From positions 1 through 45,744 of IMG/VR virus record IMGVR_UViG_3300017716_002598: DNA of 45,744 nt; one strand, 5' to 3'. The notes beneath the pieces are model-generated. The model made no database searches, had not been told where the DNA came from, and saw nothing but the letters and a program-made list of their open reading frames with translations. Source of the stretch: a virus. Within the stretch, counting starts at the first letter, position 1. Each line of letters opens with the position of its first letter. The position numbers and the translations under genes were made by a program. Below, one piece after another: positions 488 through 42,220 of this stretch.

Positions 488-736
488 GTGGTGGCTTACG
501 TGAGTGCCGACGATATGGAGGCCCGCACCCCTGCACTAGAGGGGGAGGTGGGCGCGCTGATTGCCCGTCATGCGCTTCTCGACACCCTTGAACGCCAAGC
601 CGCTGAGATAGAGAGGCTGCGGGCCTTACTGATGCTCGCCCGCCCGTTCGTTGCTGATGACACGGAAGCAACGTGCGACCTTGCCGACCGCATCGACGCC
701 GCCCTTACAGGAGAAGACGCCGGGGGGAAGGGATGA
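488..736 (+). CDS. Hypothetical protein (82 aa, GTG start; ATG 515 is an alternative)
   Basis: Codon usage is rich in G+C at the third position. The stop overlaps the xis ATG (ATGA at 733-736). No similarity recognised. Confidence 0.5.
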   Translation: MVAYVSADDMEARTPALEGEVGALIARHALLDTLERQAAEIERLRALLMLARPFVADDTEATCDLADRIDAALTGEDAGGKG

Positions 737-927
737 CCGCCGCAAACGACAACCGGCTGTGCGATCTCCTGGCGTATGGCATACCCGAAGCCGCCGCGGC
801 CTTGAGCGTGGGGCAATCAACGATCTGGCGCTGGATCAAGGCCGGCCAGCTGCGGACGATCAAGCTGGGCGGCCGGACTGTGATCCGCCGGGAGGAGCTT
901 CTCCGGCTGCTTGACGAAGCGGCCTGA
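733..927 (+). CDS. xis: Excisionase / AlpA-MerR-type helix-turn-helix protein
   Basis: The sequence LSVGQSTIWRWIKAGQLRTIKLGGRTVIRREEL is a typical excisionase HTH. The protein is small (64 aa from ATG 733) and lies immediately upstream of attP and int. Confidence 0.8.
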   Translation: MTAANDNRLCDLLAYGIPEAAAALSVGQSTIWRWIKAGQLRTIKLGGRTVIRREELLRLLDEAA

Positions 928-936
928 AATGCAGCC

Positions 937-1181
937 TGTGGGGTAACTTGTGGGGCGAGGGGTCTGGGGCGGGTCCGGTTTCCTTTTGGAAACAACGCCC
1001 AAGCCCCCGAGATTTGGCTCCGCGGGTAGGGGCCGCATTGGTATCCCAGCCGGTCCCGTTTACCCCCGTTCAATCCCGCCCCGCGGGCTTTACAGGGGCC
1101 TCGGCCTCGGCTTAAGCCCCCATGTTACCCCACACGCTCCCGCTCAATACCGTGCGCGCCTGTGGGGTAGATTGTGGGGCG
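937..1181. other. attP region: arm-type repeats flanking a tRNA-3-prime-like core
   Basis: The tandem TGTGGGGTA-N3-TGTGGGGCG occurs at 937-957 and again at 1161-1181. An inverted copy, TACCCCACA, lies at 1126-1134. Between them, 1068-1088 (GTTCAATCCCGCCCCGCGGGC) looks like a T-loop, T-stem 3-prime half and acceptor 3-prime strand. Confidence 0.65.
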
Positions 1182-1184
1182 CCT

Positions 1185-2366
1185 ATGGCCCGAGCCATCA
1201 ATCGGCTGACCGCCAGGACGGTCGCGGCCATGACCCGGCCGGGCCGTCATGCGGACGGCGGCGGGCTCTATCTCATAGTCGACAAGGTGCCGGCCAACGC
1301 GGACGACAAGACCGCTCCGGCAAAGCGATGGGCGCTCCTCGTATCCGTCCGGGGAAAGCGGCGCGAGATCGGCCTGGGGGGCGTGACCTCGACCAACGGG
1401 CTGGCGGAGGCCCGAAAGAACGCCGCCGAGGCCGTCCGCGCGATTGAGCGGGGCGACGACCCGACCCGGCCCAAGGTGGCCGCCCCCGCCTTCCGTATTG
1501 CGGCCGAGCAGGTGATCAAGGACCTGGCCCCCGGCTGGCGCGGCGCGAAGACCGAGGACGGCTGGCGGCGGAACCTCCTAACCCATGCGGCGGATATCGG
1601 ATCCGTGCCGGTCGATCTGATCACGACCGACGACGTGCTTTCCGTTGTTCGCCCCCTTTGGACCGAGAAGCCGGAGAGCGGCGGGAAGCTGCGCGCCCGG
1701 ATCGAGGTTGTCCTCGACGCCGCCAAGGCGCGGGGCTGGCGGGAAGGGGAGAACCCGGCGCGGTGGCGGGGGCATCTCGACCGACTCCTCCCCAAGCCGA
1801 GGAAGCTGGTCCGGGGCCATCACAAGGCGCTGCCCTACGCCAAACTCCCCGCGTTCATGGCGGCCCTTGCCGAACAGACGGCCAGTTCCGCCCGGGCGCT
1901 CGAGTGGACGATCCTGACCGCCTCCCGAGAGGATATGACCCTCAACGCCCGCTGGGGGGAGGTCGAGGGCGATATCTGGACGATCCCCGGCTCTCGCATG
2001 AAGATGGCCCAAGACCTGCGCGTCCCCCTGCCGGCGGCGGCCCTGGCGGTGTTGGCCGCGGTCAAGATCGGCGAGCCCCGGCCGGAGGCGCTGATATTCC
2101 CCGGCAAGAAGAAGGACCGGCCAATGTCGAACGCGACGATGGACGCCCTTCTCGACCGCATGGGCGTCCCCGTCACGGTCCACGGCTTCCGCTCAACATT
2201 CCGCGACTGGGCCGGGGATATGACCGAACACCCGCGCGAGGTCGCCGAGGCGGCCCTGGCCCACGCCGTAGGGAACGCGGTCGAGCGATCCTATCGCCGG
2301 GGGGATGCGCTGGAGAAGCGCCGGGCGCTCATGGCGGACTGGGCCGCCTATTGCCGCCCCGCATAA
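1185..2366 (+). CDS. int: Tyrosine integrase (P4-like family)
   Basis: The C-terminal catalytic region HGFRSTFRDWAGD...LAHAVGNAVERSYRRGD carries the H-x-x-R and Y signatures. The N-terminus (GGGLYLIV) is typical of this family. ATG 1185 is preferred over the longer track ORF start at 1122. Confidence 0.9.
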   Translation: MARAINRLTARTVAAMTRPGRHADGGGLYLIVDKVPANADDKTAPAKRWALLVSVRGKRREIGLGGVTSTNGLAEARKNAAEAVRAIERGDDPTRPKVAAPAFRIAAEQVIKDLAPGWRGAKTEDGWRRNLLTHAADIGSVPVDLITTDDVLSVVRPLWTEKPESGGKLRARIEVVLDAAKARGWREGENPARWRGHLDRLLPKPRKLVRGHHKALPYAKLPAFMAALAEQTASSARALEWTILTASREDMTLNARWGEVEGDIWTIPGSRMKMAQDLRVPLPAAALAVLAAVKIGEPRPEALIFPGKKKDRPMSNATMDALLDRMGVPVTVHGFRSTFRDWAGDMTEHPREVAEAALAHAVGNAVERSYRRGDALEKRRALMADWAAYCRPA

Positions 2367-2670: not shown

Positions 2671-2903
2671 GCGGGCTAGAGGAGCGAAACGGTCGGAAAT
2701 TCGCCTCTCCCAAACACCAGGCCCTTTACGACCTATTTCGCCGCGATCCGCCGACCGCCGGCTTCGGCGGGGGCAACGCCGCGGCCTATCGCTTCGGCTT
2801 CGCCAACCCCGAGAAGCCCGCGAAACACGTTCGCGGGTCGACCGCATACGCCGCCTGGGCCGCTGGCGTGGATACTGCCCGCGCCCTGGCCCCTAACCCT
2901 TAA
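2667..2903 (+). CDS. Hypothetical small protein A2 (78 aa)
   Basis: ATGA-coupled to A1. Codon bias is coding-like. No similarity recognised. Confidence 0.6.
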   Translation: MSGLEERNGRKFASPKHQALYDLFRRDPPTAGFGGGNAAAYRFGFANPEKPAKHVRGSTAYAAWAAGVDTARALAPNP

Positions 2904-2916
2904 GGAACCCGAGCCG

Positions 2917-3075
2917 ATGACCCGCCCTGACCTTGTTTGGCATCACCGCGCCCTTGTGGCGGAGGTCGCCGCCCATAACCTCGCCGTCATTGTCCGCCGC
3001 CGTCGCGGTGGAGATTGGAGCGCGCCGGAGAACCAGTATCGCAACGCCCTGGCCGAGATCGAGGCGCTGGCATGA
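2917..3075 (+). CDS. Hypothetical small protein A3 (52 aa; below the ORF-track cutoff)
   Basis: Translated by hand: MTRPDLVWHHRALVAEVAAHNLAVIVRRRRGGDWSAPENQYRNALAEIEALA. AAGGA lies about 10 nt upstream. The stop overlaps ATG 3072 (ATGA). Confidence 0.5.
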   Translation: MTRPDLVWHHRALVAEVAAHNLAVIVRRRRGGDWSAPENQYRNALAEIEALA

Positions 3076-3305
3076 TCCAGATGACCGAGACCAGCACCGG
3101 CCCGGCGTTCTCAACCGAGGCCCGCGGCGTGACCTATTATCTCCGCACCGACCGGCTGGGCCGTTACGAGTTGAGCAGCCAACGCATCTCCCTTCGCGCC
3201 TCGCGGACGGGCGGCACCGTTCGTCACTTCGCTTCGCTGGATCAGGTCGAGGCCGAGGTCAAAGCCTTTGCCGGCCTTAGCGCCCTGATTGGAAACCCCG
3301 CATGA
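3072..3305 (+). CDS. Hypothetical small protein A4 (77 aa)
   Basis: ATG 3072 is ATGA-coupled on both sides. No similarity recognised. Confidence 0.6.
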   Translation: MIQMTETSTGPAFSTEARGVTYYLRTDRLGRYELSSQRISLRASRTGGTVRHFASLDQVEAEVKAFAGLSALIGNPA

Positions 3306-19215: not shown

Positions 19216-19244
19216 TGGAAAAAGGACGGCGGGTGCGACCCGCC
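19216..19244 (-). terminator. Intrinsic terminator / attenuator downstream of the major tail gene
   Basis: Minus strand: GGCGGGT-cgc-ACCCGCC (19244..19228) followed by GTCCTTTTTCC. It lies in the 82-nt gap before the chaperone gene. Confidence 0.7.
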
Positions 19245-19285
19245 GCTAAGGTTGGGGGGAGGCTGGTTCTTGCGGCCGGGCGGTC

Positions 19286-19774
19286 TTAGGTGCCGCCGGT
19301 GACCGCGGTCGAGGGAACCTCGTCAATCTCTGTGTCGATTGCACAGACGATGTTCCGCATATTGACGGCCGAGGACGAGCCCCGGTTGACCTTGGCGGAG
19401 AGGACGCGAGCGCCGAAATAGACGACCGAGTCGGTGTCGTTGGAATCGGCACCGTCCGCGGCCACGACCTTGATCGGATAGAGGCGGGCCGTTGCGGCCG
19501 CAGCGATGGCGGCGATCTGGCCGGCGTCGAGGGGGTCGTCCGCGCAGCCAAAGGTGATGTTGCCCGGGTTGACCGCGCCCTTGCGCTGGCGGGTTCGGCC
19601 GTCAGCCAGAGGCGTGTGGGAGATCACCGCGCCGTCGTCGCCGAACTCGGAGACGGTTTCGACGCCACCGATCTCGGTCCAGGTCAGGGAGGCATAGCCG
19701 GACGGGGTGCGGTTGGTTTCGGTGACGGCCGCCGCGATATAGACGCGGGTGCCGATGCCATCGGAGATTGCCAT
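19286..19774 (-). CDS. Major tail protein (TP901-1 / RcGTA g9-like)
   Basis: Called from its size (162 aa), from its position before the chaperone pair, and from the sequence pattern (TRVYIA...YASLTWTEIGGVETVSEFG). Confidence 0.75.
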   Translation of the reverse strand: MAISDGIGTRVYIAAAVTETNRTPSGYASLTWTEIGGVETVSEFGDDGAVISHTPLADGRTRQRKGAVNPGNITFGCADDPLDAGQIAAIAAAATARLYPIKVVAADGADSNDTDSVVYFGARVLSAKVNRGSSSAVNMRNIVCAIDTEIDEVPSTAVTGGT

Positions 19775-19811: not shown

Positions 19812-19834
19812 AAAAAGGCCCGCCGGAGCGAGCC
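19812..19834 (-). terminator. Hairpin plus U-run upstream of the major tail gene
   Basis: Minus strand: GGCUCGC-uccg-GCGGGCC (one G-U pair) followed by TTTTTC. It lies in the 106-nt gap 19775-19880. Confidence 0.5.
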
Positions 19835-19880
19835 TGTTTTGGCCGTGCCGTGTGGCCGGTCCAATGCTGAGGCTGGGCCC

Positions 19881-30711: not shown

Positions 30712-31625
30712 GCGACCTTGACGAGCCTCATTCCGTATTCGTTGGGGGCGGGGTCGAGGTTGAGGTCGGGGCGGCGGATCAGGCGTTGGCGCTTGAACCG
30801 GGAATAGTCGACGTGATGGTGAACCCGGCGATAGCGGAAGATCACCTCCGCGACGTCGGGATGAACGGCCGCCAGCATCTTCGACTTAGCGACCGTGCCC
30901 GTGTCCGCGTATTTCTCGCCGGCCCGGACCGTCCCCTCGGCGTGGTAGAACTCCGCAGTGTTCCCCCCCGGTAGCTTCTGGGTCTCCATCTTCTCTTGCA
31001 GGAAGGCGTTGAACTGGATCGTGCACCAGCCGGCCTTGAGCATATCGAGCGAGAGGATCGTGTCCTCGTTGTATCGGCCGCGCCAGCGGAAGGGGGCGTC
31101 GTTGCGGATCAGGTTGCAGGAATAGATGCGGGTGTTCGCGACGAAGGGCGGGCGCTTACATTTTCGCTCGGCGAACATGAAATAGTTGGGGCCGGCCATC
31201 GCGACGTTGAGATAGCGAAGGGTGAAGTCCTCCATCGCCGCCCAATAGCCGGGGCTAGTCGTCCTGACCTTGAGGTTATGGTTCCAGCGGAAGAACCAGA
31301 TGATGTTGTCATCCATCACCCAATGCCAGGCGTGGCCCGCGGCGATGGAGTGTTCCCAAGCGAAGTTGCGGGCCGGGCCGGGGCCGGTGCTTTTCGAGAG
31401 GCCGAGGTCGTCGCAGAGCTCGTAGCGATCCTTGAAGGAGAGATCGAGCGGGAGGACGGTCGCGAGGAGGTCCATTGACCGGATCGCGGTCTCGTATGCC
31501 TCGACCTCCTGGGGCTCAACGACAACGAAGTGGGGGACGCCCATCCGGGTTAGGGCCTTGCTCGTCACCATATAGGCGGAGCGGCCCTTCGAGACGATGT
31601 AGAGCGGGAAGCGGGGGTTATTCAT
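30708..31625 (-). CDS. GT-A-fold nucleotide-sugar transferase-like protein (TAGT-like?)
   Basis: The N-terminus is PLYIVSKGRS. The sequence GPGPARNFAWEHSIAAGHAWHWVMDDN matches the GT-A pattern ARN...A.G....hhhDD(D/N). It is coupled to ParB (8-nt overlap) and to terS (ATGA). Confidence 0.5.
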   Translation of the reverse strand: MNNPRFPLYIVSKGRSAYMVTSKALTRMGVPHFVVVEPQEVEAYETAIRSMDLLATVLPLDLSFKDRYELCDDLGLSKSTGPGPARNFAWEHSIAAGHAWHWVMDDNIIWFFRWNHNLKVRTTSPGYWAAMEDFTLRYLNVAMAGPNYFMFAERKCKRPPFVANTRIYSCNLIRNDAPFRWRGRYNEDTILSLDMLKAGWCTIQFNAFLQEKMETQKLPGGNTAEFYHAEGTVRAGEKYADTGTVAKSKMLAAVHPDVAEVIFRYRRVHHHVDYSRFKRQRLIRRPDLNLDPAPNEYGMRLVKVA

Positions 31626-32244
31626 ACCGCTTGTCGGCGTATCGCTCGATCTGGATTTCGGGATACCAGACGAAGCGGGTCTTCGACGTGATCGCGAACT
31701 CGGTCATGGTCGTGAAGGCGTCGACCGCGGCTTGGTCGGGAAAGTGAACGACGAGCGACCGGAACGCCTTTTTGTCGGTCTGGGAGAACTCCGGCATCCC
31801 TTGCCATTCGGCTTCGGCGTCGTTCTCGCCTTCCTCGCGCGGGAGGAGGAGGTTCTGAATCTCCCCCGCGTCGAAGCCGATCAGGTCCAGGTCATACCCG
31901 CCCTCGGCGAGCGCCTCGATTTCGGCACGGAGGGCGTCGTCATCCCATCCGGCGTTGAGGGCCAGCTTGTTGTCCGCGATCACATAGGCCCGGCGCTGGG
32001 CTTCGGAGAGGTGGTCGAGGACGAGGACCGGGACGGTTGCGAGCCCGAGGGATTGAGCGGCGAGAACCCGTCCGTGCCCGGCGATGATCCCGCCTTCGGC
32101 GTCGACGAGGACCGGGTTGGTAAACCCGAACTCGGTGATTGAGGCGGCGATCTGCGCGACCTGGGCCTCGGAGTGCGTCCGGGAGTTCCGGGCATAGGGC
32201 GTCAGGTCGGCAATCGGCCGCTGCTCGAGGTCTTTCGGGGTCAT
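31618..32244 (-). CDS. ParB/Srx-like N-terminal domain protein lacking the usual methyltransferase domain
   Basis: ParB-type motifs are present (LTPYARNSRTHSEAQVAQIAASI...IIAGHGRVLAA). The EWQGMPEF...VVHF......F linker is normally followed by an N6/N4 DNA methylase in phage ParB-methyltransferase fusions. Confidence 0.7.
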   Translation of the reverse strand: MTPKDLEQRPIADLTPYARNSRTHSEAQVAQIAASITEFGFTNPVLVDAEGGIIAGHGRVLAAQSLGLATVPVLVLDHLSEAQRRAYVIADNKLALNAGWDDDALRAEIEALAEGGYDLDLIGFDAGEIQNLLLPREEGENDAEAEWQGMPEFSQTDKKAFRSLVVHFPDQAAVDAFTTMTEFAITSKTRFVWYPEIQIERYADKRYE

Positions 32245-32256
32245 GCGTCCTCAGGT

Positions 32257-32333
32257 CTTCGCCCCGACCGCGCCGGTTGGATCGCTGCTCTGTCGGGCGT
32301 AAATCGGTCGATCACCGCGGGGTCGGGGCGAAG
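32257..32333 (-). promoter_or_regulatory. Large leader stem-loop abutting the Shine-Dalgarno sequence of the first late gene
   Basis: An 11-bp and a 5-bp helix (32257-32272 paired with 32316-32333, with a 2-nt bulge) enclose a 43-nt loop. The 3-prime arm ends 12 nt before ATG 32244, just before GAGGA. Confidence 0.6.
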
Positions 32334-32564
32334 GTGAACCAGTCCCGGCTGTGACCGCCTTGCCGGGCTACATGAAACGGCCGAAGCCGCCCCGCGCCCC
32401 CGGTGCGCTTCCCGCGCTAAGGCCGGTCGGAATCAGCCCTCGGCCGGGGCAGGACGCTGCGAGAATAGGCGCGGGGCAGTAAGGGGTGAGCGCCCGTCCC
32501 CGGTTCGGCCTTGCGGCTAGGGGGCGATCTGCGCTCGTGCCGGGGCCTGTATCGCCCGGCGGAT

Positions 32565-32598
32565 GCAAAAACGGCCCCGGCCGGTGAAGGCTGGGGCC
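32565..32598 (-). terminator. Intrinsic terminator between cassette B and the late leader
   Basis: Minus strand: GGCCCCAGCC-ttcacc-GGCCGGGGCC (one G-U pair) followed by GTTTTTG. Confidence 0.75.
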
Positions 32599-32633
32599 GA
32601 TCTGGTCGCGTCTTGCGCGTATGGGCTTCTGCA

Positions 32634-32642
32634 CACGTTACC
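32634..32642 (-). promoter_or_regulatory. Fourth GGTAACGTG box (operator, or -10-like TAACGT)
   Basis: The 9-mer is identical to the boxes at 41279-41287 and 42188-42196. It lies 10 nt after the stop of ORF 32652..32870 and 36 nt before the terminator hairpin. Confidence 0.5.
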
Positions 32643-32651
32643 GCTCCGCTG

Positions 32652-32870
32652 TCAATCCGTAGGGGGTCGGGGCGCACAGGACGCTAGTTCTTGCGCCCAC
32701 GCCGCCGGGGACAGCTTGAGGGCCATTAGGACCGCCCTCGCCGCAGGACCGGACGGCCCGACTGTGGCATAGTTCTGTGCGGTCTTCGGGCTGACCATGA
32801 GCCACCGGCCCGCAGCCTGCTGCGACAGGCCGAGGGGTGCGAGGGCGGCGCGGTATTCAGCGGGGGTCAT
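32652..32870 (-). CDS. XRE-type helix-turn-helix protein B4 (72 aa), last gene of cassette B
   Basis: MTPAEYRAALAPLGLSQQAAGRWLMVSPKTAQNYATVGPSGPAARAVLMAL fits the short XRE HTH pattern. ATG 32870 is ATGA-coupled to the upstream ORF. Confidence 0.6.
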   Translation of the reverse strand: MTPAEYRAALAPLGLSQQAAGRWLMVSPKTAQNYATVGPSGPAARAVLMALKLSPAAWAQELASCAPRPPTD

Positions 32871-33046
32871 TCGGGCAACTCCGAACAAAACACGATTTCC
32901 GCACCGGGCGCATAAATCGCGACAAGATCGCGGGCGGTTTCCTTCATGTCGGACCAGCACTCTCCGTCCACATCAAACTGACGACCATCCTCTAGGGTCA
33001 GCAGCGCCCATTTTGCCGTTTGCCGCTCAAGGTGAACCTCACGCAT
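32867..33046 (-). CDS. Hypothetical small protein B3 (59 aa)
   Basis: ATG 33046 is preferred over 33097, which would give a long overlap. No similarity recognised. Confidence 0.5.
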   Translation of the reverse strand: MREVHLERQTAKWALLTLEDGRQFDVDGECWSDMKETARDLVAIYAPGAEIVFCSELPE

Positions 33047-33275
33047 GAACGTTGCGTCCCGTTTCAACAAAATGCCGAGCGTTGAGCGCCGAAGCATATT
33101 CCTTGCGAAGCTGCGCCAGACGACGCTCCTTGCGGGATTCTTTGTCGTCCGACGCCTTCACGGCTTCCGCTTGCTGCACGATACCGGCCATAACAGCGGT
33201 CCAATCGGTCTTGGCAAGCGCGCGGCGCTGGACCTTTCCCTTAGCAGCGTCCGAAAGGTCAATGTATCGGGCCAT
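33039..33275 (-). CDS. Hypothetical small protein B2 (78 aa)
   Basis: The protein is charged and helical. It is preceded by AGGAAACAGACAG directly before the ATG. No similarity recognised. Confidence 0.6.
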   Translation of the reverse strand: MARYIDLSDAAKGKVQRRALAKTDWTAVMAGIVQQAEAVKASDDKESRKERRLAQLRKEYASALNARHFVETGRNVHA

Positions 33276-33324
33276 CTGTCTGTTTCCTGAAGGATGGAGA
33301 GGCGGGGCCGAAGCCCCTGCCGGG

Positions 33325-33585
33325 TTAGTCAGCCATCGCGCGTTGGTAAGCGTAGGCTTGCGAACCCTCTAGGTCGCGAACGATGCGGGCGAGACCGGGC
33401 ATCGTCGGACCGTCAGAACCGCAAAAGTATGTTTTACCGGCGACAGACCGGAGCATCAAATGAATGTCGGGCGAGGTCGGCGGCCCGGCCCAGTTTGTGC
33501 AATGAATGAGAACGCCGACGCAGGAGCCGTCTTGCATCAGGGCCGATTCTTCGGCGTTCAGGGGGATGGCGTTATAGCTGGTCAT
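33325..33585 (-). CDS. Hypothetical small protein B1 (86 aa)
   Basis: Preceded by the same GGAAACAGACAG 12-mer before the ATG. No similarity recognised. Confidence 0.6.
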   Translation of the reverse strand: MTSYNAIPLNAEESALMQDGSCVGVLIHCTNWAGPPTSPDIHLMLRSVAGKTYFCGSDGPTMPGLARIVRDLEGSQAYAYQRAMAD

Positions 33586-33646
33586 CTGTCTGTTTCCGTC
33601 CGGCTAGTGCTTGATTGCCCTGCGCCGATGAAGTGACCCTAAGCAC

Positions 33647-33689
33647 ATTTTACGCAGGTCGCAATAGGCGGTTGCGTATTATTTACGCA
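33647..33689 (-). promoter_or_regulatory. Candidate promoter of cassette B, with the same box geometry as cassette A
   Basis: Minus strand: TGCGTAAATA (33689..33680), 4 nt, GCAACC, 17 nt, TAAAAT (33652..33647). The inverted repeat TACGCA-N16-TGCGTA lies at 33651-33678. The ATG is 61 nt downstream. Confidence 0.5.
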
Positions 33690-33749
33690 GCGGACAAGCG
33701 GGAGGACAACCTGTCCGCCACTGTCCCCCCGTTTTGTCCCGGCGTCCCG

Positions 33750-34541
33750 CTATTCCAGACCATACGCGACGGCCGCGCAGTCCAGCGCCAGGACCAGGGC
33801 CACCGAAATGCTAGCCTGCACCGAGCCGCTGTTGCTCAACGAGCGCAGATTAGAGCCCTTACCGGCGATCTCTCGCAAGGCCCAGACGGCCCGGCCGGTG
33901 CGCTCGACGGCGGTCCTGCCGTTCGCGCCCTTGAAGGTCCGGTCCTCCTCCTGGATCAGCTTCTCCAAATCTCGGACGAACAGTTCCCGCTCGGTCCGCT
34001 TGGCGGCCCAGCCTTCGCCGCCCCGCGTGATATTCCGCGACTGGTCGATGGCCGGCGGGGTGAGCCCCTTCTCCGGGTCGAGGAGTTCGTAGTCCGTGCG
34101 GAACCGGAGCCCGGCCGCATACTGGTTTGGCGAGAGCGACCGGGTGGTCATCAGGGTCTCAAGCCCGTCGCGCGAGGCAATGCGCTTCCGACCTTCGTGT
34201 TCCTTCCGGTCCGAGGTCTCGATCTGCGAGCCCCGGAGGGCTTCGAGCCCCACGGTCTCGGCTATGTCGTTTGCCACCCGGATCGCCTGCTGGGCCGCCG
34301 CGATCTCCTCCTCGAGGCGGAGCATGGCCTCCCGGCCTTCCCGGCGCTGGCGGAGGTCTGGGGACGCCTCGGCTTGGACCGCCTGACGGAACCGGCGGGC
34401 CTGGCCCTCGGTGAGCGTCTGGCCCGATACGGTCAGGGAGCCGTTGTCGTTGGCAATCCCGGCCCCGTTATCGTTTGCCCCGATCATCCGGGGGGCGGAG
34501 GCGCGGGCCTGGCGCTTCTTGCGTTGGCGGGCGGAGGTCAT
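33750..34541 (-). CDS. Hypothetical protein (263 aa), last gene of the early replication operon
   Basis: Codon bias is good and the gene is ATGA-coupled upstream. LSPNQYAAGLRFRTDYE vaguely recalls DUF6456-type proteins (low certainty). Confidence 0.65.
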   Translation of the reverse strand: MTSARQRKKRQARASAPRMIGANDNGAGIANDNGSLTVSGQTLTEGQARRFRQAVQAEASPDLRQRREGREAMLRLEEEIAAAQQAIRVANDIAETVGLEALRGSQIETSDRKEHEGRKRIASRDGLETLMTTRSLSPNQYAAGLRFRTDYELLDPEKGLTPPAIDQSRNITRGGEGWAAKRTERELFVRDLEKLIQEEDRTFKGANGRTAVERTGRAVWALREIAGKGSNLRSLSNSGSVQASISVALVLALDCAAVAYGLE

Positions 34542-34705
34542 GCGTTCGGCTCCTGGGGGGTGGGGTTGGCGGCTTGGCGGGCCTCGGCCTCAATCGCCCG
34601 TGATACCGCGTCGGCGGCGTCCATCAGGGCAAAGCGGAGGGCCGATCCGATACGGGCGGCGGTGATCCGCCCGACGATCTCAGTCTGGATGGCGTGGAGG
34701 GTCAT
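34538..34705 (-). CDS. Hypothetical small protein (55 aa; below the ORF-track cutoff)
   Basis: Translated by hand: MTLHAIQTEIVGRITAARIGSALRFALMDAADAVSRAIEAEARQAANPTPQEPNA. It has ATGA overlaps at both ends. Confidence 0.55.
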   Translation of the reverse strand: MTLHAIQTEIVGRITAARIGSALRFALMDAADAVSRAIEAEARQAANPTPQEPNA

Positions 34706-35697
34706 GCGGCGCGCTCCTGTTTGGCTTGGGTTCTGTCGTTTGCGGCCGCGACGGCGACGCTGATCCGGCGCTCGGCGAAATACCCGGCCAGTTCGGCCTT
34801 GAGCGTTTCCGCCACGGTCGCGTTGATGGCGAGGATCGTCCGGTCGGCCCCCCGCCAGCGGCAGTAATGGTCAAGCCAGCGCCGGGCGAAGGCGTCGTCC
34901 TTGAGCGCGACGATCCTGGCGCGGAGTTCGGGCGGGCCGTCGAAGGTCGGGGCTGGACCTGTGGAATTCGCAGGGCCAGCCTCGGCCCCCCAGTTGAGGT
35001 GCTTCCCGTCCTTGAGCCACACGGCCATATCGGGCGCACCCTTGCCGCCGCACGTCTCGCCGACGTTGGGGGCGAACCGCCGGATCGCCGCGACCAGGCC
35101 CTCGCGCTCGTCGGCCGGCAGCTTGGCCCAGACCGCCGCCGCGTTCGGCTTGGAGGATCGGCCCTTGTGGTGCGGGTATTCCTTCCACGCCGCCTCGAAG
35201 GCCTCCGGGTAAGACCTCGCCTTCGGGGCTTTCGTCGCTCCCGGCGACAAGGAAGCGTTAGCTTCCAATTCTATCTGGCTTCTAGCTTCTAGTATGGCAT
35301 TGCGGTCGCATCCGTTGTGCATTGCATCCGCATGGTCCGGGTCGTTGTTTTCCTTGGCTTTTGCCCTAGAGTTTTCCCACCGGGCGTTTGCCGCCTCTGT
35401 CGACTTTTCAACGAGTTTCTGACGACTTTCGAGCGATTTAACCGCGCGGGCGTTGGTCAGGAAGCCGTCGATCAGGGTCAGTTTCCCGAGGTCGAGGAGG
35501 GTGTCGAGCGCCTTCTGTGTGGCGGTCGGGCGCATCCGGCAGCGGCGGGACAGGCGGGCCAGATTGAGGGGCCAAGGGCCGCCGCCGTCATAGATCAGGT
35601 TGAGAACGATGGTGTAGACCCAGCCCTCGCCCGGCTCGAGTTCCGAGACGCCGTGCAGGAAGTCGCCCGGGAACCACTTAATCCAAGGGTCTTTCAT
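34702..35697 (-). CDS. DUF1376 (YdaU-like) replication initiation / primosome-organising protein
   Basis: The N-terminus WIKWFPGDFLHGVSELEPGEGWVYTIVLNLIY is typical of DUF1376. The gene is directly downstream of dnaB and overlaps it. Confidence 0.7.
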   Translation of the reverse strand: MKDPWIKWFPGDFLHGVSELEPGEGWVYTIVLNLIYDGGGPWPLNLARLSRRCRMRPTATQKALDTLLDLGKLTLIDGFLTNARAVKSLESRQKLVEKSTEAANARWENSRAKAKENNDPDHADAMHNGCDRNAILEARSQIELEANASLSPGATKAPKARSYPEAFEAAWKEYPHHKGRSSKPNAAAVWAKLPADEREGLVAAIRRFAPNVGETCGGKGAPDMAVWLKDGKHLNWGAEAGPANSTGPAPTFDGPPELRARIVALKDDAFARRWLDHYCRWRGADRTILAINATVAETLKAELAGYFAERRISVAVAAANDRTQAKQERAA

Positions 35698-37187
35698 TCC
35701 CCGCCCCCATAGCTAAAGCGCCCGCCCTGGGCCTCGTAATCGGTCTGGCGGGCGAGGTTCCCGAACCGGGTGGTGTTGTCGTCAAAGGAGAGGCGGACGG
35801 TGCCGATAGGGCCGTGGCGCTGCTTGCCGACGATCACCTCGGCTTGGCCGTGGGCCAGCGTCATGGCCTCGGTCCATTCGAGGTGCGCGGCGCTCCCCGG
35901 CTTGGGCTCAGAGCGGCCGAGATAGTAGCTCTCGCGGTAGACGAACATCACGCAATCCGCGTCCTGTTCGATGCTCCCCGACTCCCGGAGGTCCGAGAGC
36001 ATCGGCCGCTTGTCGTCCCGGCTCTCGACCTGGCGGGAAAGCTGCGAGAGGGCAATGATCGGGATGCCGAGTTCCTTGGCCAGCGCCTTGAGCGCCCCGG
36101 TGATCTCCGAGACCTCCTGCGTCCGGTTGCGCTGGCCCCGGCCGTCGCCGGTCGTGCAGAGTTGGAGATAATCGACAATCAGGAGGTCCAAGCCCTCGCG
36201 GCGGTGCTGCCGGCGGACCCGGGCGCAAAGCTTGGCGATATGGATTCCGCCCGTCTCGTCGATATGGAGCGGGATCGACCGGATCAGGTCCCGGGCCTCC
36301 CGGATCCGGCCGAAGTCCTCGCGGGTGATGTAGCCCTTCCGCATTTTGTCGGAGGAGACCCCCGAGGCGTCCGCGAGGATGCGCTGGGCCAGCTGCTCCT
36401 TGGACATTTCCAGCGAGGAGAACATGACCCGCCCGCCCGCGGTCGTCCGGCGACCGTGGGGCGCGTCCGGGTCGGTCTCGAAGCGATATGCGCGGGCGAC
36501 GTTGAAGCCGATGTTGGTGGCCAGGGCGGTCTTGCCCATCGACGGGCGGCCGGCGAGGATCAGGAGGTCGGACGGGTGGAGGCCCCCGATCTTCTGGTCG
36601 AGGTCGATCAAGTCGGTCGCGAGGCCCGAGAGCTTGCCGTCCCGTTTGAAGGCGGCCTCGATCATTTCCATCGCCCCGTCGACGGCGTCGGAGAAGGCGA
36701 AGACCGCCGAGGCCTGCTCCCCGGACTCCGCGAGGGTGAACAGGGCGTTTTCTGCCGCCGCGACGTGGTCGAGCGCGGGCTTGTCAGGGTCGAGCGCCTC
36801 GGCGCTGATCTGGTCTGCGATCCGAACGAGGTCCCGGCGAGTCGCAAGGTCGATGATTGACCTGGCGCAGTCTATAGCCACTCGGGCGGCCGGGGCCTTG
36901 TCCAGCAGCCCGAACAAATAGGCCGCGCCGCCGAAGTCGGGGAAGGCCGGATCCGTTGCGAAGGTATCCGCCAGCAGGGAAGGCGAGACCGACCGGCCCG
37001 CCGTGACGGCTTCGGTGATCGCGTCAAACAGGCGCTGATGGAATGGCTCAAAGAAGTGGGCGCCGCGCAGCCGGTCGGGAAGGCGCTCCATCAGGCCGGT
37101 GTCGTAGAGGATAGCGCCGAGGAGATCGCACTCGGCGGGGACGTTGGATGGGAGGCCTGGCGCGGCGGCGTCTCGGGGGTCGGTCAT
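35694..37187 (-). CDS. dnaB: Replicative DNA helicase DnaB
   Basis: Walker A is GRPSMGKTALA. The sequences LLIVDYLQL, SQLSRQVESRDDKRPMLSDLRESGSIEQDAD and the N-terminal domain are all DnaB-typical. Confidence 0.95.
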   Translation of the reverse strand: MTDPRDAAAPGLPSNVPAECDLLGAILYDTGLMERLPDRLRGAHFFEPFHQRLFDAITEAVTAGRSVSPSLLADTFATDPAFPDFGGAAYLFGLLDKAPAARVAIDCARSIIDLATRRDLVRIADQISAEALDPDKPALDHVAAAENALFTLAESGEQASAVFAFSDAVDGAMEMIEAAFKRDGKLSGLATDLIDLDQKIGGLHPSDLLILAGRPSMGKTALATNIGFNVARAYRFETDPDAPHGRRTTAGGRVMFSSLEMSKEQLAQRILADASGVSSDKMRKGYITREDFGRIREARDLIRSIPLHIDETGGIHIAKLCARVRRQHRREGLDLLIVDYLQLCTTGDGRGQRNRTQEVSEITGALKALAKELGIPIIALSQLSRQVESRDDKRPMLSDLRESGSIEQDADCVMFVYRESYYLGRSEPKPGSAAHLEWTEAMTLAHGQAEVIVGKQRHGPIGTVRLSFDDNTTRFGNLARQTDYEAQGGRFSYGGGE

Positions 37188-40676: not shown

Positions 40677-40991
40677 TTAGGCCAAGGTCTCGCCCGGCTC
40701 AGAAGGAGTGCAGGGGTGTTTGTCATTCGCGGCGTCAGGCTGTTTTTCGGCCCGGCTGGCCAATGGGACCGGGCCGTGGGGCGTCCACTGCTTGAGGTTC
40801 AGTGCCTCTGCGGCCTTCTCTTGGGCGGCGATTACGAGGTCGAGGAGCGGCAGTTGTGCCGCCGCGACGGAGGCCAGTTCCAAAAGCAGAACCCGCGCCT
40901 TCGGCTCGTCACCGTCGCGGGCGCAATGGTCGGCGGTCATGGCCAGCCGATAGACCCGCCGGGCGACGACAAGGGCGTCGTGAACAATCAT
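40677..40991 (-). CDS. Hypothetical protein (104 aa)
   Basis: ATGA-coupled to the cro-like gene. Confidence 0.6.
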   Translation of the reverse strand: MIVHDALVVARRVYRLAMTADHCARDGDEPKARVLLLELASVAAAQLPLLDLVIAAQEKAAEALNLKQWTPHGPVPLASRAEKQPDAANDKHPCTPSEPGETLA

Positions 40992-41212
40992 GCGGCCCGG
41001 TCCTGCGAGGCTGTGTCGTTGGCCGGGACATGACTGGCGGCCTTCAACACCTCGAGCGTGATGTCGGGATAGGCGTCGATCAGTTCAGCCCAAGCGGCGC
41101 GCGGGATCGTGTTCCGGCTTTTCCACATTCGGACGTTGATGGCAGGGACGCCCAGCTTCGCCGCAATTTCGGCGGAGCCCTTGGCGGCGATAAGGTCGGA
41201 GTGCGTTGTCAT
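40988..41212 (-). CDS. Cro-like HTH protein (74 aa)
   Basis: It is divergent from the repressor gene. The HTH region is SAEIAAKLGVPAINVRMWKSRNTIP. ATG 41212 lies 7 nt after a -10-like hexamer and has no Shine-Dalgarno sequence. Confidence 0.7.
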   Translation of the reverse strand: MTTHSDLIAAKGSAEIAAKLGVPAINVRMWKSRNTIPRAAWAELIDAYPDITLEVLKAASHVPANDTASQDRAA

Positions 41213-41293
41213 GCCCGGCACGTTACGAACGGTTACGCGATAACGCAAGACCTTGTTACGCCCAGATACATCCTTTCCGGTAACGTGATCGGC
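41213..41293. promoter_or_regulatory. Immunity switch region: divergent promoters and GTTAC/GTAAC operator repeats
   Basis: GTTAC occurs at 41222, 41232 and 41255, and GTAAC at 41280. Minus-strand promoter: TTGCGT (41248..41243), 17 nt, TAACGT (41225..41220). GGTAACGTG (41279-41287) lies 6 nt before the repressor ATG. Confidence 0.7.
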
Positions 41294-41677
41294 ATGGATG
41301 ATCGCTGGAAAACCGCCGCCGACTCTCACGACCGCCTGCGTTGGGCCCGGATCCAATGGCAGGAGGCCAAGGGCATCAAGCCGGACGCCGGGGCCGCGGC
41401 GGAGAGCCTGGGCATCAAGGCGCACACCTATCGTGCCTATGAGCGCCGCCCCGACTCCTCAAAGCACACCCGTCTTGACGATCAGCGCGCGATCCAGTTC
41501 GCGCGCAAATTCGGCGTCAACTGGACCTGGCTGCTGACGGGCGAGGGAAGCCCCGACGCGAGCGACGACCGCCTGACGCCAACAGAGCGCCGGATGATCG
41601 ACGCCCTACGAGAGGCCCCAGAGGCCCGGCAGGCCGCAGCCGCCGATGCGATCATCCAGCTGCTCAAGATTGCCTAA
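41294..41677 (+). CDS. CI-like XRE-family repressor (127 aa, no peptidase domain)
   Basis: The HTH region is AAESLGIKAHTYRAYERRPDSSKHTRLDDQRAIQFARKFGVNWTWLLTGEG. The gene is divergent from the cro-like gene. Confidence 0.75.
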   Translation: MDDRWKTAADSHDRLRWARIQWQEAKGIKPDAGAAAESLGIKAHTYRAYERRPDSSKHTRLDDQRAIQFARKFGVNWTWLLTGEGSPDASDDRLTPTERRMIDALREAPEARQAAAADAIIQLLKIA

Positions 41678-42145: not shown

Positions 42146-42195
42146 GTAACCCAACGTAACTTTCCGCTTGCGTTGTGAGTAACGATAGGTAACGT
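42146..42195 (+). promoter_or_regulatory. PL-like early promoter with four phased GTAAC operator repeats
   Basis: GTAAC occurs at 42146 and 42156, and at 42179 and 42189, with 10-bp spacing within each pair. The promoter reads TTGCGT (42168-42173), 16 nt, TAACGT (42190-42195). A GAGGGGA Shine-Dalgarno sequence precedes ATG 42221. Confidence 0.65.
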
Positions 42196-42220
42196 GGCCC
42201 CCTAACCAGAGGGGAGCCCC

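Follow-up and report, generated by a model that had tools for sequence, protein, structure and literature searches.

How does RNA polymerase reach the late genes of the temperate phage catalogued as IMG/VR record IMGVR_UViG_3300017716_002598? The question is raised by a 407-nucleotide (nt) gap on the minus strand, at positions 32,245 to 32,651 of the window, by which we mean the whole stretch of 45,744 nt that was analyzed. The gap sits downstream of a gene for a 263-amino-acid (aa) protein and of four small open reading frames (ORFs), and ahead of the gene for a ParB_N protein. Since it separates early-side genes from those for ParB_N, TerS and TerL, its position matches that of the Q-PR'-tR' region of phage lambda. 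An initial annotation of the window proposed that the gap holds a lambda-like antitermination leader. Two parts of that proposal, a start upstream of a strong terminator and read-through, are favored by our comparative data, whereas the involvement of a Q homologue is not.

Comparison with relatives makes it very probable that the first ~90 nt of the gap (32655..32567, minus strand), and these alone, form a functional unit that is conserved in a family of Caulobacterales phages. We propose with moderate confidence that this cassette is a promoter-terminator switch that requires antitermination for expression of the late packaging, head and tail genes. From sequence comparisons we infer that the promoter is active, where transcription starts, that read-through takes place, which factor is responsible and how that factor is loaded.

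A candidate promoter followed by two RNA hairpins

The cassette opens with a perfect -35-like hexamer, TTGACA, which overlaps the stop codon (TGA, 32652..32654) of an upstream 72-aa ORF. A TGA stop is likewise embedded in the TTGAC hexamer of a Brevundimonas vesicularis prophage (locus L150, 3985..3987), where the upstream gene is unrelated. TTGAC is invariant in all 26 distinct units that we compared, and conservation starts exactly at this hexamer behind three different upstream genes. Counted from TTGAC, the conserved spacer positions are G9, G10, A11 and G14 to C20, with G24 and CA also kept. The best-conserved bases of the family lie in the promoter block TTGAC-N3-GGA-N2-GGTAATC-N-C-N-GACA, which lies outside the RNA. 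Within the family consensus of this block, TGACA or GGACA occurs three times, once each in the -35, the spacer and the -10 (positions 2-6, 9-13 and 23-27 from TTGAC; 32654..32629 in the window). The spacer motif, GGAnnGGTAA(C/T), contains part of the GGTAACGTG box discussed below and is a candidate loading site for a regulator.

The hexamer that might serve as the -10 is weak. In relatives, GACAY(A/C) occurs 17 nt after TTGAC and is followed by an almost invariant CA, the likely start site. The GACAYC form, which stands at an allowed spacing, is presumably comparable to the Caulobacter housekeeping -10 (GCtANAWC), for which the full promoter consensus is TTGACgS-N10-14-GCtANAWC. An E. coli-style scan, in which the consensus is that of E. 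coli, does not call the candidate promoter. Neither a promoter scan nor reading of the sequence uncovered any other promoter-like sequence between the terminator and ParB, and we count this single promoter-like block in favor of a promoter-terminator switch.

The initial annotation had singled out the GGTAACGTG box at 32642..32634 on the minus strand as identical to boxes at the early promoters. We find the box at this position, and exact copies are also present at 41279..41287 and 42188..42196 on the plus strand. Three copies compare with 0.07 expected, and none of 100 shuffled sequences reaches three. TTGCGT stands 16-17 nt before the exact copy at 42188 and before another, with one mismatch, at 41227..41219 (minus strand); this spacing identifies both as early promoters. 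In the leader, TAACGT has no matching -35 at 16-17 nt, as the annotation stated, but the perfect TTGACA, which is 9 nt from TAACGT, had been missed.

TAACGT is also unlikely to be the -10 of the leader, as had been suggested by analogy with the early promoters. It reads GGCCGT in the 41-kb relative L100, whose early promoters retain TAACGT(G) in the same TTGCGT-N17-TAACGT form, and the family-wide invariant is TTGAC at 17-18 nt from another -10-like hexamer. The L100 leader carries GTGGCCGTG in place of GGTAACGTG, so the full box is not required there, and the spacer motif becomes GGAGCAGTGGCC in L100 and L110 despite the same early promoters. The possibility that the box is an immunity-specific operator is weakened by the L100 leader and by the conservation of GGTAA far beyond the close clade. 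The box is probably part of a conserved promoter-spacer motif and not the -10.

Two hairpins follow the promoter block. The second, at 32599..32567, has a GC-rich stem (CGGCCCC-A-GCC paired with GGC-C-GGGGCCG) that is directly followed by U5, which are the characteristics of an intrinsic terminator. This strong terminator, already recognized in the initial annotation, is the second strongest hairpin-plus-T-run site in the window, and each of the four strongest such sites occupies an intergenic position on the coding strand. The third and fourth are the two terminators that the same annotation placed around the major tail gene (19286..19774), which matches major-tail-protein families. The predicted 63-nt transcript of the cassette folds with z = -3.8 relative to shuffled sequence.

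When each of the 26 distinct units is folded alone by minimum free energy, hairpin 1 and the terminator form at the same positions in all of them, whereas the sequences of the stems differ. Hairpin 1 stems fall into at least five classes (CGCG/CGCG, GCGC/GCGC, GGUGCA/UGCGCC, GGUGC/GCGCC, GGGCG/CGCCC and CGUC/GACG), and the loops vary too (CAAGA, GAUA, GCAA and UUU). Terminator stems include GGCCCC/GGGGCC, GGCUCC/GGGGCC, ACCCCC/GGGGGU and AGCCCCG/CGGGGCU. In a loop-anchored alignment, both partners have changed in 11 of 18 pairs, and U·G pairs are common. Pairs were counted from a structure-anchored alignment; MAFFT placed hairpin 1 out of register, also when N-padding was included. Because U·G pairs correspond to A·C mismatches on the other strand, these data argue for an RNA on the minus strand and not for a DNA site. 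Covariation and G·U pairing together indicate that both hairpins act as RNA on this strand.

A structured RNA of this size invites a different explanation, namely that the unit is a free-standing small-RNA gene producing a ~55-nt two-hairpin RNA like lambda oop or 6S RNA, with the late genes controlled elsewhere. The promoter-like block, the defined terminator, the stability of the fold and the occurrence of an autonomous cassette in varied contexts would all suit such a gene. However, structure is kept while sequence is not, and no unpaired seed is conserved, as the linkers ACCAGAU, GAGA, AAAGCAA and CCGAUAGA illustrate. Moreover, the best-conserved bases reside in the untranscribed promoter block, and the unit always lies directly before late genes. 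No known RNA family was matched in Rfam at gathering or permissive thresholds by the units of the window or its relatives. We therefore regard a small-RNA gene as rather improbable.

Conservation of the cassette and its link to the 263-aa protein

The unit spans 84-89 nt from TTGAC to the T-run and is found in about 35 of the 42 phage and prophage loci that were retrieved with the 263-aa protein, Brevundimonas loci included. Its order is constant: TTGAC, 17-18 nt, a GACAY- or CAGAA-type hexamer, CA, hairpin 1, a short linker, the GC-rich terminator and T4-6. Further examples occur in the sewage phage MW091528 in GenBank, where the unit is unannotated, and in the B. vesicularis prophage on JAMYEC010000003.1 of assembly GCA_033790825.1. 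Of 80 phage loci retrieved by way of ParB, 79 lack the unit. The initial annotation had called for a comparison of the leader in related phages, and the outcome is that the first ~90 nt are conserved and covarying whereas the remainder is clade-specific.

The unit follows the 263-aa gene directly or after inserted small genes. A scan with the motif TTGACNNNGGANNGGTAATC alone recovers 28 full units, and in each of the 23 that could be assessed (at least 1.5 kb of upstream sequence is needed) the 263-aa gene precedes the unit on the same strand. Of 37 chance motif matches, only one has the gene upstream, and this one is itself a real unit cut by the end of its locus. In every assessable locus, between 40 nt and 1.2 kb separate the cassette from the 263-aa gene upstream of it, and in about half of the loci TerS or TerL is 0.4-2.6 kb downstream of the 263-aa gene. 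The unit stays with the gene while the downstream TerS and TerL types change.

In the proposed mechanism, host sigma-70-type RNA polymerase would start at ~32622 from a promoter composed of TTGACA, an 18-nt spacer and the weak CAGAAG. The nascent RNA would fold the short 5' hairpin and would then be ended ~55 nt from the start at the intrinsic terminator, unless the polymerase had become resistant to termination. The resistance factor would most probably be the 263-aa protein, which would be made from the early or middle operon upstream and recruited through GGAnnGGTAA(C/T), as lambda Q, Pseudomonas AlpA and Caulobacter GafZ are recruited between -35 and -10. The modified polymerase would also pass the two terminators that flank the major tail gene (19.8 and 19.2 kb). 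The constant order of promoter, terminator and late genes, together with these terminators inside the late operon, supports the antitermination idea.

Another possibility is that the terminator does no more than close the early or middle operon, and that late transcription starts downstream of 32567 at an activator-dependent promoter (for example, GcrA-like). The upstream block would then be an activator or repressor site, or an element of a 3' untranslated region. This would fit the weakness of the proposed -10 and its absence from the consensus-scan calls, the presence of a GcrA homologue (PF07750) in the phage, and the loss of the terminator in some relatives. Also, the box is common to early promoters, so contact with a repressor or sigma factor is possible. 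However, the TTGAC block precedes the terminator in constant order at a fixed 84-89 nt, and conservation begins exactly at a perfect -35. Furthermore, nothing promoter-like is conserved past the terminator, and relatives have only 8-15 nt between it and the next element, E2. In locus L131, the unit comes after a reverse-oriented gene, and the 263-aa gene ends in a terminator of its own. Little is left there to terminate, and therefore the terminator of the unit is not merely ending an early operon and the unit must supply its own transcripts. We judge the operon-end explanation unlikely, and return to a switch that is overcome by antitermination.

Element E2 bears on read-through. It is a ~45-nt RNA-like element, cUGACCAUGUuCgG-cGC-UNCG-GCa-AuGGCUGGAUCAGg, that lies 8-15 nt after the T-run of the cassette in most distant relatives (L114, L118 and L120-L147; L149, 2067..2106; L150, 4075..4122). 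Its outer stem covaries, its apical hairpin reads C-UNCG-G with a closing pair that alternates between G-C and C-G, and the covariation of the element exceeds that of all 500 shuffles and all slid controls. No Rfam match to E2 was found. The distance from the T-run to E2 is too short to hold a promoter, so this element is most simply transcribed by read-through. A search of the window with the E2 model gave best matches of E >= 0.055, none of them in the leader. Where relatives have E2, the window has two segments that we call M1 and M2 and the large hairpin described below. In the clade of the window, a swap between UUCG and GAGA loops in M2 likewise counts as a sign of transcription beyond the terminator.

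There are 142 close homologues of the candidate factor, all hypothetical and many from Brevundimonas, and the wider family consists of 272 representative clusters, all unnamed. Only one GenBank phage record carries the gene. Its N-terminus (MTSARQRKKRQAR) is basic and rich in arginine and lysine, and the protein also contains a long helix and, at the C-terminus, a conserved domain of helices. The sole Pfam family it touches is DUF6456, through residues 135-160 (E = 0.065; 13.8 bits against a cut-off of 26.3). A Foldseek search of viral models (BFVD) returned hits with a probability of 1.0 and TM values of 0.32-0.53, among them a protein from a Rhodobacter phage and one with DUF6456. A word-indexed profile search with distant members for DUF6456 proteins returned the same family only. 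The four small upstream ORFs have no Pfam or PHROG match either. Synteny points to the 263-aa protein, and not to the factors that the initial annotation had named (the GcrA homologue among them), and on this basis we tentatively put it forward as the antitermination factor, a role that we hold to be possible but short of probable.

Comparison with known antitermination systems

To our knowledge, hardly any work has addressed late-gene control in temperate phages of alphaproteobacteria, and the worked examples are limited to GafYZ and BrrG, which are regulators of gene transfer agents (GTAs). The most familiar parallel is the Q/qut/PR'/tR' system of lambda (also of phages 21 and 82). As there, the regulator gene would close the early region, a strong intrinsic terminator stands tens of nt past a candidate promoter and ahead of a long late operon with further terminators, and a conserved DNA element, here predicted from conservation, lies between -35 and -10. 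The Q-type layout is represented in the window by TTGACA-N18-CAGAAG with a terminator 55 nt past the putative start, and order and length are constant in the 26 units.

There are also differences. No Q-like protein, as the initial annotation had considered, was recovered by Pfam, PHROG, PDB sequence or fold searches. The short transcript would be ~55 nt, compared with 194 nt in lambda, and the first late genes are for ParB, a glycosyltransferase and terminase, whereas in lambda they are lysis genes. Unlike lambda, the window has an RNA hairpin of conserved structure that lies ahead of the terminator and past the putative start site. This hairpin is a distinctive feature of the arrangement, and we speculate that it may give a pause or protect the 5' end. 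It does not resemble a put RNA, which had been offered as an alternative to Q: the HK022 RNA has two stems in ~65 nt, whereas the unit has one variable hairpin of 4-7 bp and no Rfam match.

A small hairpin near the 5' end of the RNA and upstream of terminators, combined with an arginine/lysine-rich N-terminus, is reminiscent of the N/nut system of lambda. However, hairpin loops vary while the N-terminus remains the same, so recognition of the boxB type is unsupported. The same N-terminus occurs with different hairpin classes in the window and L114, and in L134/L145 and L127/L139. We therefore rejected an N/boxB-like pairing of the basic N-terminus with hairpin 1, for which there is no co-variation. 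No boxA-like motif was noticed by eye, although no systematic search was made.

Two further systems are from alphaproteobacteria. DUF6456 is the hallmark of proteins homologous to GafA, which activates the GTA of Rhodobacter capsulatus (PMC9638019). GafZ of Caulobacter crescentus is the equivalent of the C-terminal part of a split GafA, and is an antiterminator with an element between -35 and -10 (PMC11150451). The GafY/GafZ system shares with our locus an alphaproteobacterial host, a leader and terminators before phage-type structural genes, and the position of the element, through which loading is here proposed (PMC11150451). Unlike the palindromic ZBE (GCGCCCG-CTGGCGC), the spacer motif is not palindromic. 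In addition, terGTA consists of 150-bp repeats after the first gene, whereas the phage has a canonical terminator 55 nt from the start, and we identified no GafY-like partner. A sigma or helix-turn-helix fold of the GafA/GafZ type was not recovered in the 263-aa protein.

BrrG acts on the bgtA-K leader of Bartonella, which has a constitutive-looking promoter, a long non-coding leader and a terminator (bioRxiv 10.1101/2024.11.20.624540). It is a processive antiterminator encoded in the replication-side module of a phage-derived element of alphaproteobacteria, and the 263-aa gene is placed similarly. However, BrrG structurally resembles Q21 and needs a -10-like element, neither of which is seen here.

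Several observations weigh against an antitermination switch operated by the 263-aa protein. The proposed -10 is poor in comparison with the E. coli consensus and differs among clades, and its fit to the Caulobacter consensus is presumed. Loading of Q-type proteins needs a -10-like (NANNNT) sigma-dependent pause element, and no such element is conserved; there are no conserved A/T columns four apart downstream of the -10, and CATGGT is present in one hairpin class only. The 263-aa protein has no detectable similarity to Q-lambda, Q21, AlpA, sigma factors or solved structures, as judged by sequence and by the fold of the full-length protein and of its C-terminal domain. Its DUF6456 match is below threshold, and such matches are limited to two of the 28 close and one of the 79 distant family members that were scanned (3 of 107 in total; best 5e-5).

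Some relatives pose a further difficulty. The sub-lineage of L112, L113 and L116 has a hairpin lacking a U-run instead of the terminator, and in L107 the U-run is weakened to AUUUCG, which means that the terminator is dispensable in some relatives. If the model is correct, constitutive read-through is expected in these four naturally occurring variants. Shared ancestry within one phage clade, and not function, could also explain why protein and cassette are linked. Finally, the 100% pairing in the alignment of units is true by construction, since this alignment was built from the folds of the units themselves, although the variety of the stems is not.

With these points in mind, we offer a broader but doubtful proposal: the 263-aa proteins might be a new structural class of processive antiterminators in temperate phages of Caulobacterales, distantly tied to GafA/GafZ. 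They would be loaded through the spacer element and an obligatory nascent-RNA hairpin, with no sigma-dependent pause, and E2 would add another, previously undescribed part to the late leader.

The remainder of the gap and its surroundings

The positions of the cassette elements and of other features are listed in Table 1.

Table 1. Positions of cassette elements, leader segments, terminators and selected genes in the window
Feature	Position	Strand	Remarks
TTGACA, -35-like hexamer	32650..32655	-	Perfect; 5' edge of family-wide conservation
Spacer motif GGAGCGGTAAC	32647..32637	-	With box to 32634; family consensus GGAcAGGTAATC
CAGAAG, candidate weak -10	32631..32626	-	18 nt after TTGACA
CA, likely start site	32623..32622	-	Predicted from conservation; near-invariant
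Hairpin 1, CGCG-CAAGA-CGCG	32607..32619	-	Near 5' end of predicted short transcript
Intrinsic terminator	32567..32599	-	7-bp + 3-bp GC stem, 6-nt loop, U5; dG -21.2 kcal/mol
M1, variable GC-rich filler	32480..32566	-	Folding z = -1.2, not exceptional
M2	32342..32479	-	Kept in close clade only; folding z = -0.2, not exceptional
Large hairpin (H)	32257..32333	-	11-bp perfect stem + interrupted extension; dG -43 kcal/mol
ParB_N protein, first gene after leader	31618..32244	-	ATG 32244; Shine-Dalgarno GAGGA 32252..32248
263-aa protein	33750..34541	-	No significant Pfam or PHROG match
Replication initiator	34702..35697	-	
DnaB	35694..37187	-	
cro-like gene	41212..40988	-	Switch region 41.2-42.2 kb
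cI-like gene	41294..41677	+	Switch region 41.2-42.2 kb
Xis-like helix-turn-helix protein	733..927	+	
Integrase	1122..2366	+	
Internal late-operon terminator	19812..19856	-	Upstream of major tail gene
Internal late-operon terminator	19219..19246	-	Downstream of major tail gene

The initial annotation had treated the whole gap as one arrangement, including a 230-nt GC-rich stretch and a large hairpin. The GC-rich stretch does not belong to it, as it is swapped, shortened or interrupted by genes in close relatives. M1 is replaced in these by an unrelated segment of 23 nt or ~200 nt. M2 includes the hairpin CGGC-UUCG-GCCG (32389..32378), the loop of which is GAGA or UUUG in relatives, and the L083/L100 lineage carries a diverged 102-nt version. 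Identical copies of the gap are present in two metagenomes, and ten further contigs share two anchor sequences whose distance ranges from 171 to 519 nt. All ten contain the block from TTGACA to the T-run, and most contain M2. M1 and M2 are best described as a clade-specific, recombining GC-rich leader that lies outside the switch.

Genes have also entered this region in close relatives. Small genes are inserted between M2 and the large hairpin in L085, L086, L091 and L092, and L088 also has a leader insertion. They code for a 72-aa protein with the pattern C-x7-C-x6-C-x2-C or for an unrelated ORF of ~80 aa. In L112 and L114, a 22-aa ORF beginning MR(H/L)FWK lies just ahead of ParB or terS.

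The large hairpin is present as reported and is unusually stable for its composition (z = -3.95; none of 200 shuffled sequences folds as well). However, it is not part of the conserved arrangement because it occurs only with the ParB 5' end of this clade. Only 4 nt separate its end from the GAGGA Shine-Dalgarno sequence of the ParB_N gene, and it always abuts the ParB start, whether M2 or an inserted ORF precedes it. The stem is invariant among relatives and so provides no covariation information. By position, the large hairpin appears to belong to the 5' end of the ParB message, where we would guess that it is a stabilizer or processing site.

A further possibility is that the gap holds a DNA-level site, such as cos/pac, a packaging initiation site or a ParB/parS-like site, in which the hairpins would be inverted repeats for TerS or ParB. 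The gap is just upstream of the genes for ParB, TerS and TerL, the metagenomic contigs of many relatives end near ParB or within the leader, and the arms of the large hairpin are perfect over 11 bp, which leaves the idea some room for this hairpin alone. However, the contig ends fall at varied positions that match module junctions, and they look like assembly breaks from a heterogeneous population. The ends near ParB are thus explained better by assembly than by a physical genome end, and we rejected the contig ends as markers of a genome end, cos or pac. The abundance of U·G pairs in the stems of the unit, and its travel with the 263-aa gene through changes of TerS and TerL type, also speak against a DNA site, which we consider very improbable.

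Other features of the gap were sought. No Rfam family or tRNA was found in it. No ORF with the GC3 signature of real genes is hidden there, and changes in M2 that look synonymous are not a sign of coding because their frame has no start codon. The description of the gap as the longest non-coding stretch is approximately right, but ~2671..3301, after the integrase gene, is comparably poor in coding sequence.

The window is a temperate phage genome of 67% GC with a lambda-like layout, and in DNA comparisons with sequenced phages only its ParB gene matches. Genes for RecT and a PD-(D/E)XK nuclease are also on the plus strand. After the switch region, the minus-strand series comprises genes for the GcrA homologue, RuvC, DnaB, the replication initiator and the 263-aa protein. 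The cro-like gene is apparently leaderless: its promoter is TTGCGT-N17-TAACGT, and the ATG is 7 nt past the -10 (41212..41260, minus strand; 1060..1106 in L100). The switch region contains five repeats of the GTTAC/GTAAC type, which are possible operators.

Between the 263-aa gene and the cassette is a 1.1-kb insert (32652..33749) of lower GC content (~60%), which contains the four small ORFs without family matches. It is missing in L100, where the 263-aa gene abuts the cassette. The insert carries a promoter-like TTGCGA-N17-TAGGGT and GCGTAAA direct repeats at ~33690..33640.

Downstream of ParB_N are genes for a TET-associated glycosyltransferase, TerS, TerL, portal, scaffold, major head and tail terminator proteins, and further late genes code for the major tail protein, chaperone, tape measure and tail fiber. 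The glycosyltransferase gene (PF20691; 30708..31625, minus strand) adjoins the ParB_N gene and is directly upstream of terS. PHROG names this family beta-glucosyl-HMC-alpha-glucosyltransferase, and the pairing of PF20691 with ParB_N suggests DNA hypermodification. The strongest terminator of the genome (3548..3583, minus strand; 14-bp GC stem, UUCG loop, dG -32.5 kcal/mol) sits between the tail-fiber end of the late operon and the att/int region.

Two unannotated but conserved RNA structures emerge from these comparisons and are candidates for RNA family collections: E2, and the leader hairpin together with its terminator. Both could be used as markers of the boundary between early and late genes in prophage annotation. 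More broadly, a compact cassette of ~90 nt and one candidate protein, found in phages and prophages of Brevundimonas and relatives, provide a testable tie between phage late regulators and the regulators of GTAs, and may represent a new antiterminator fold.

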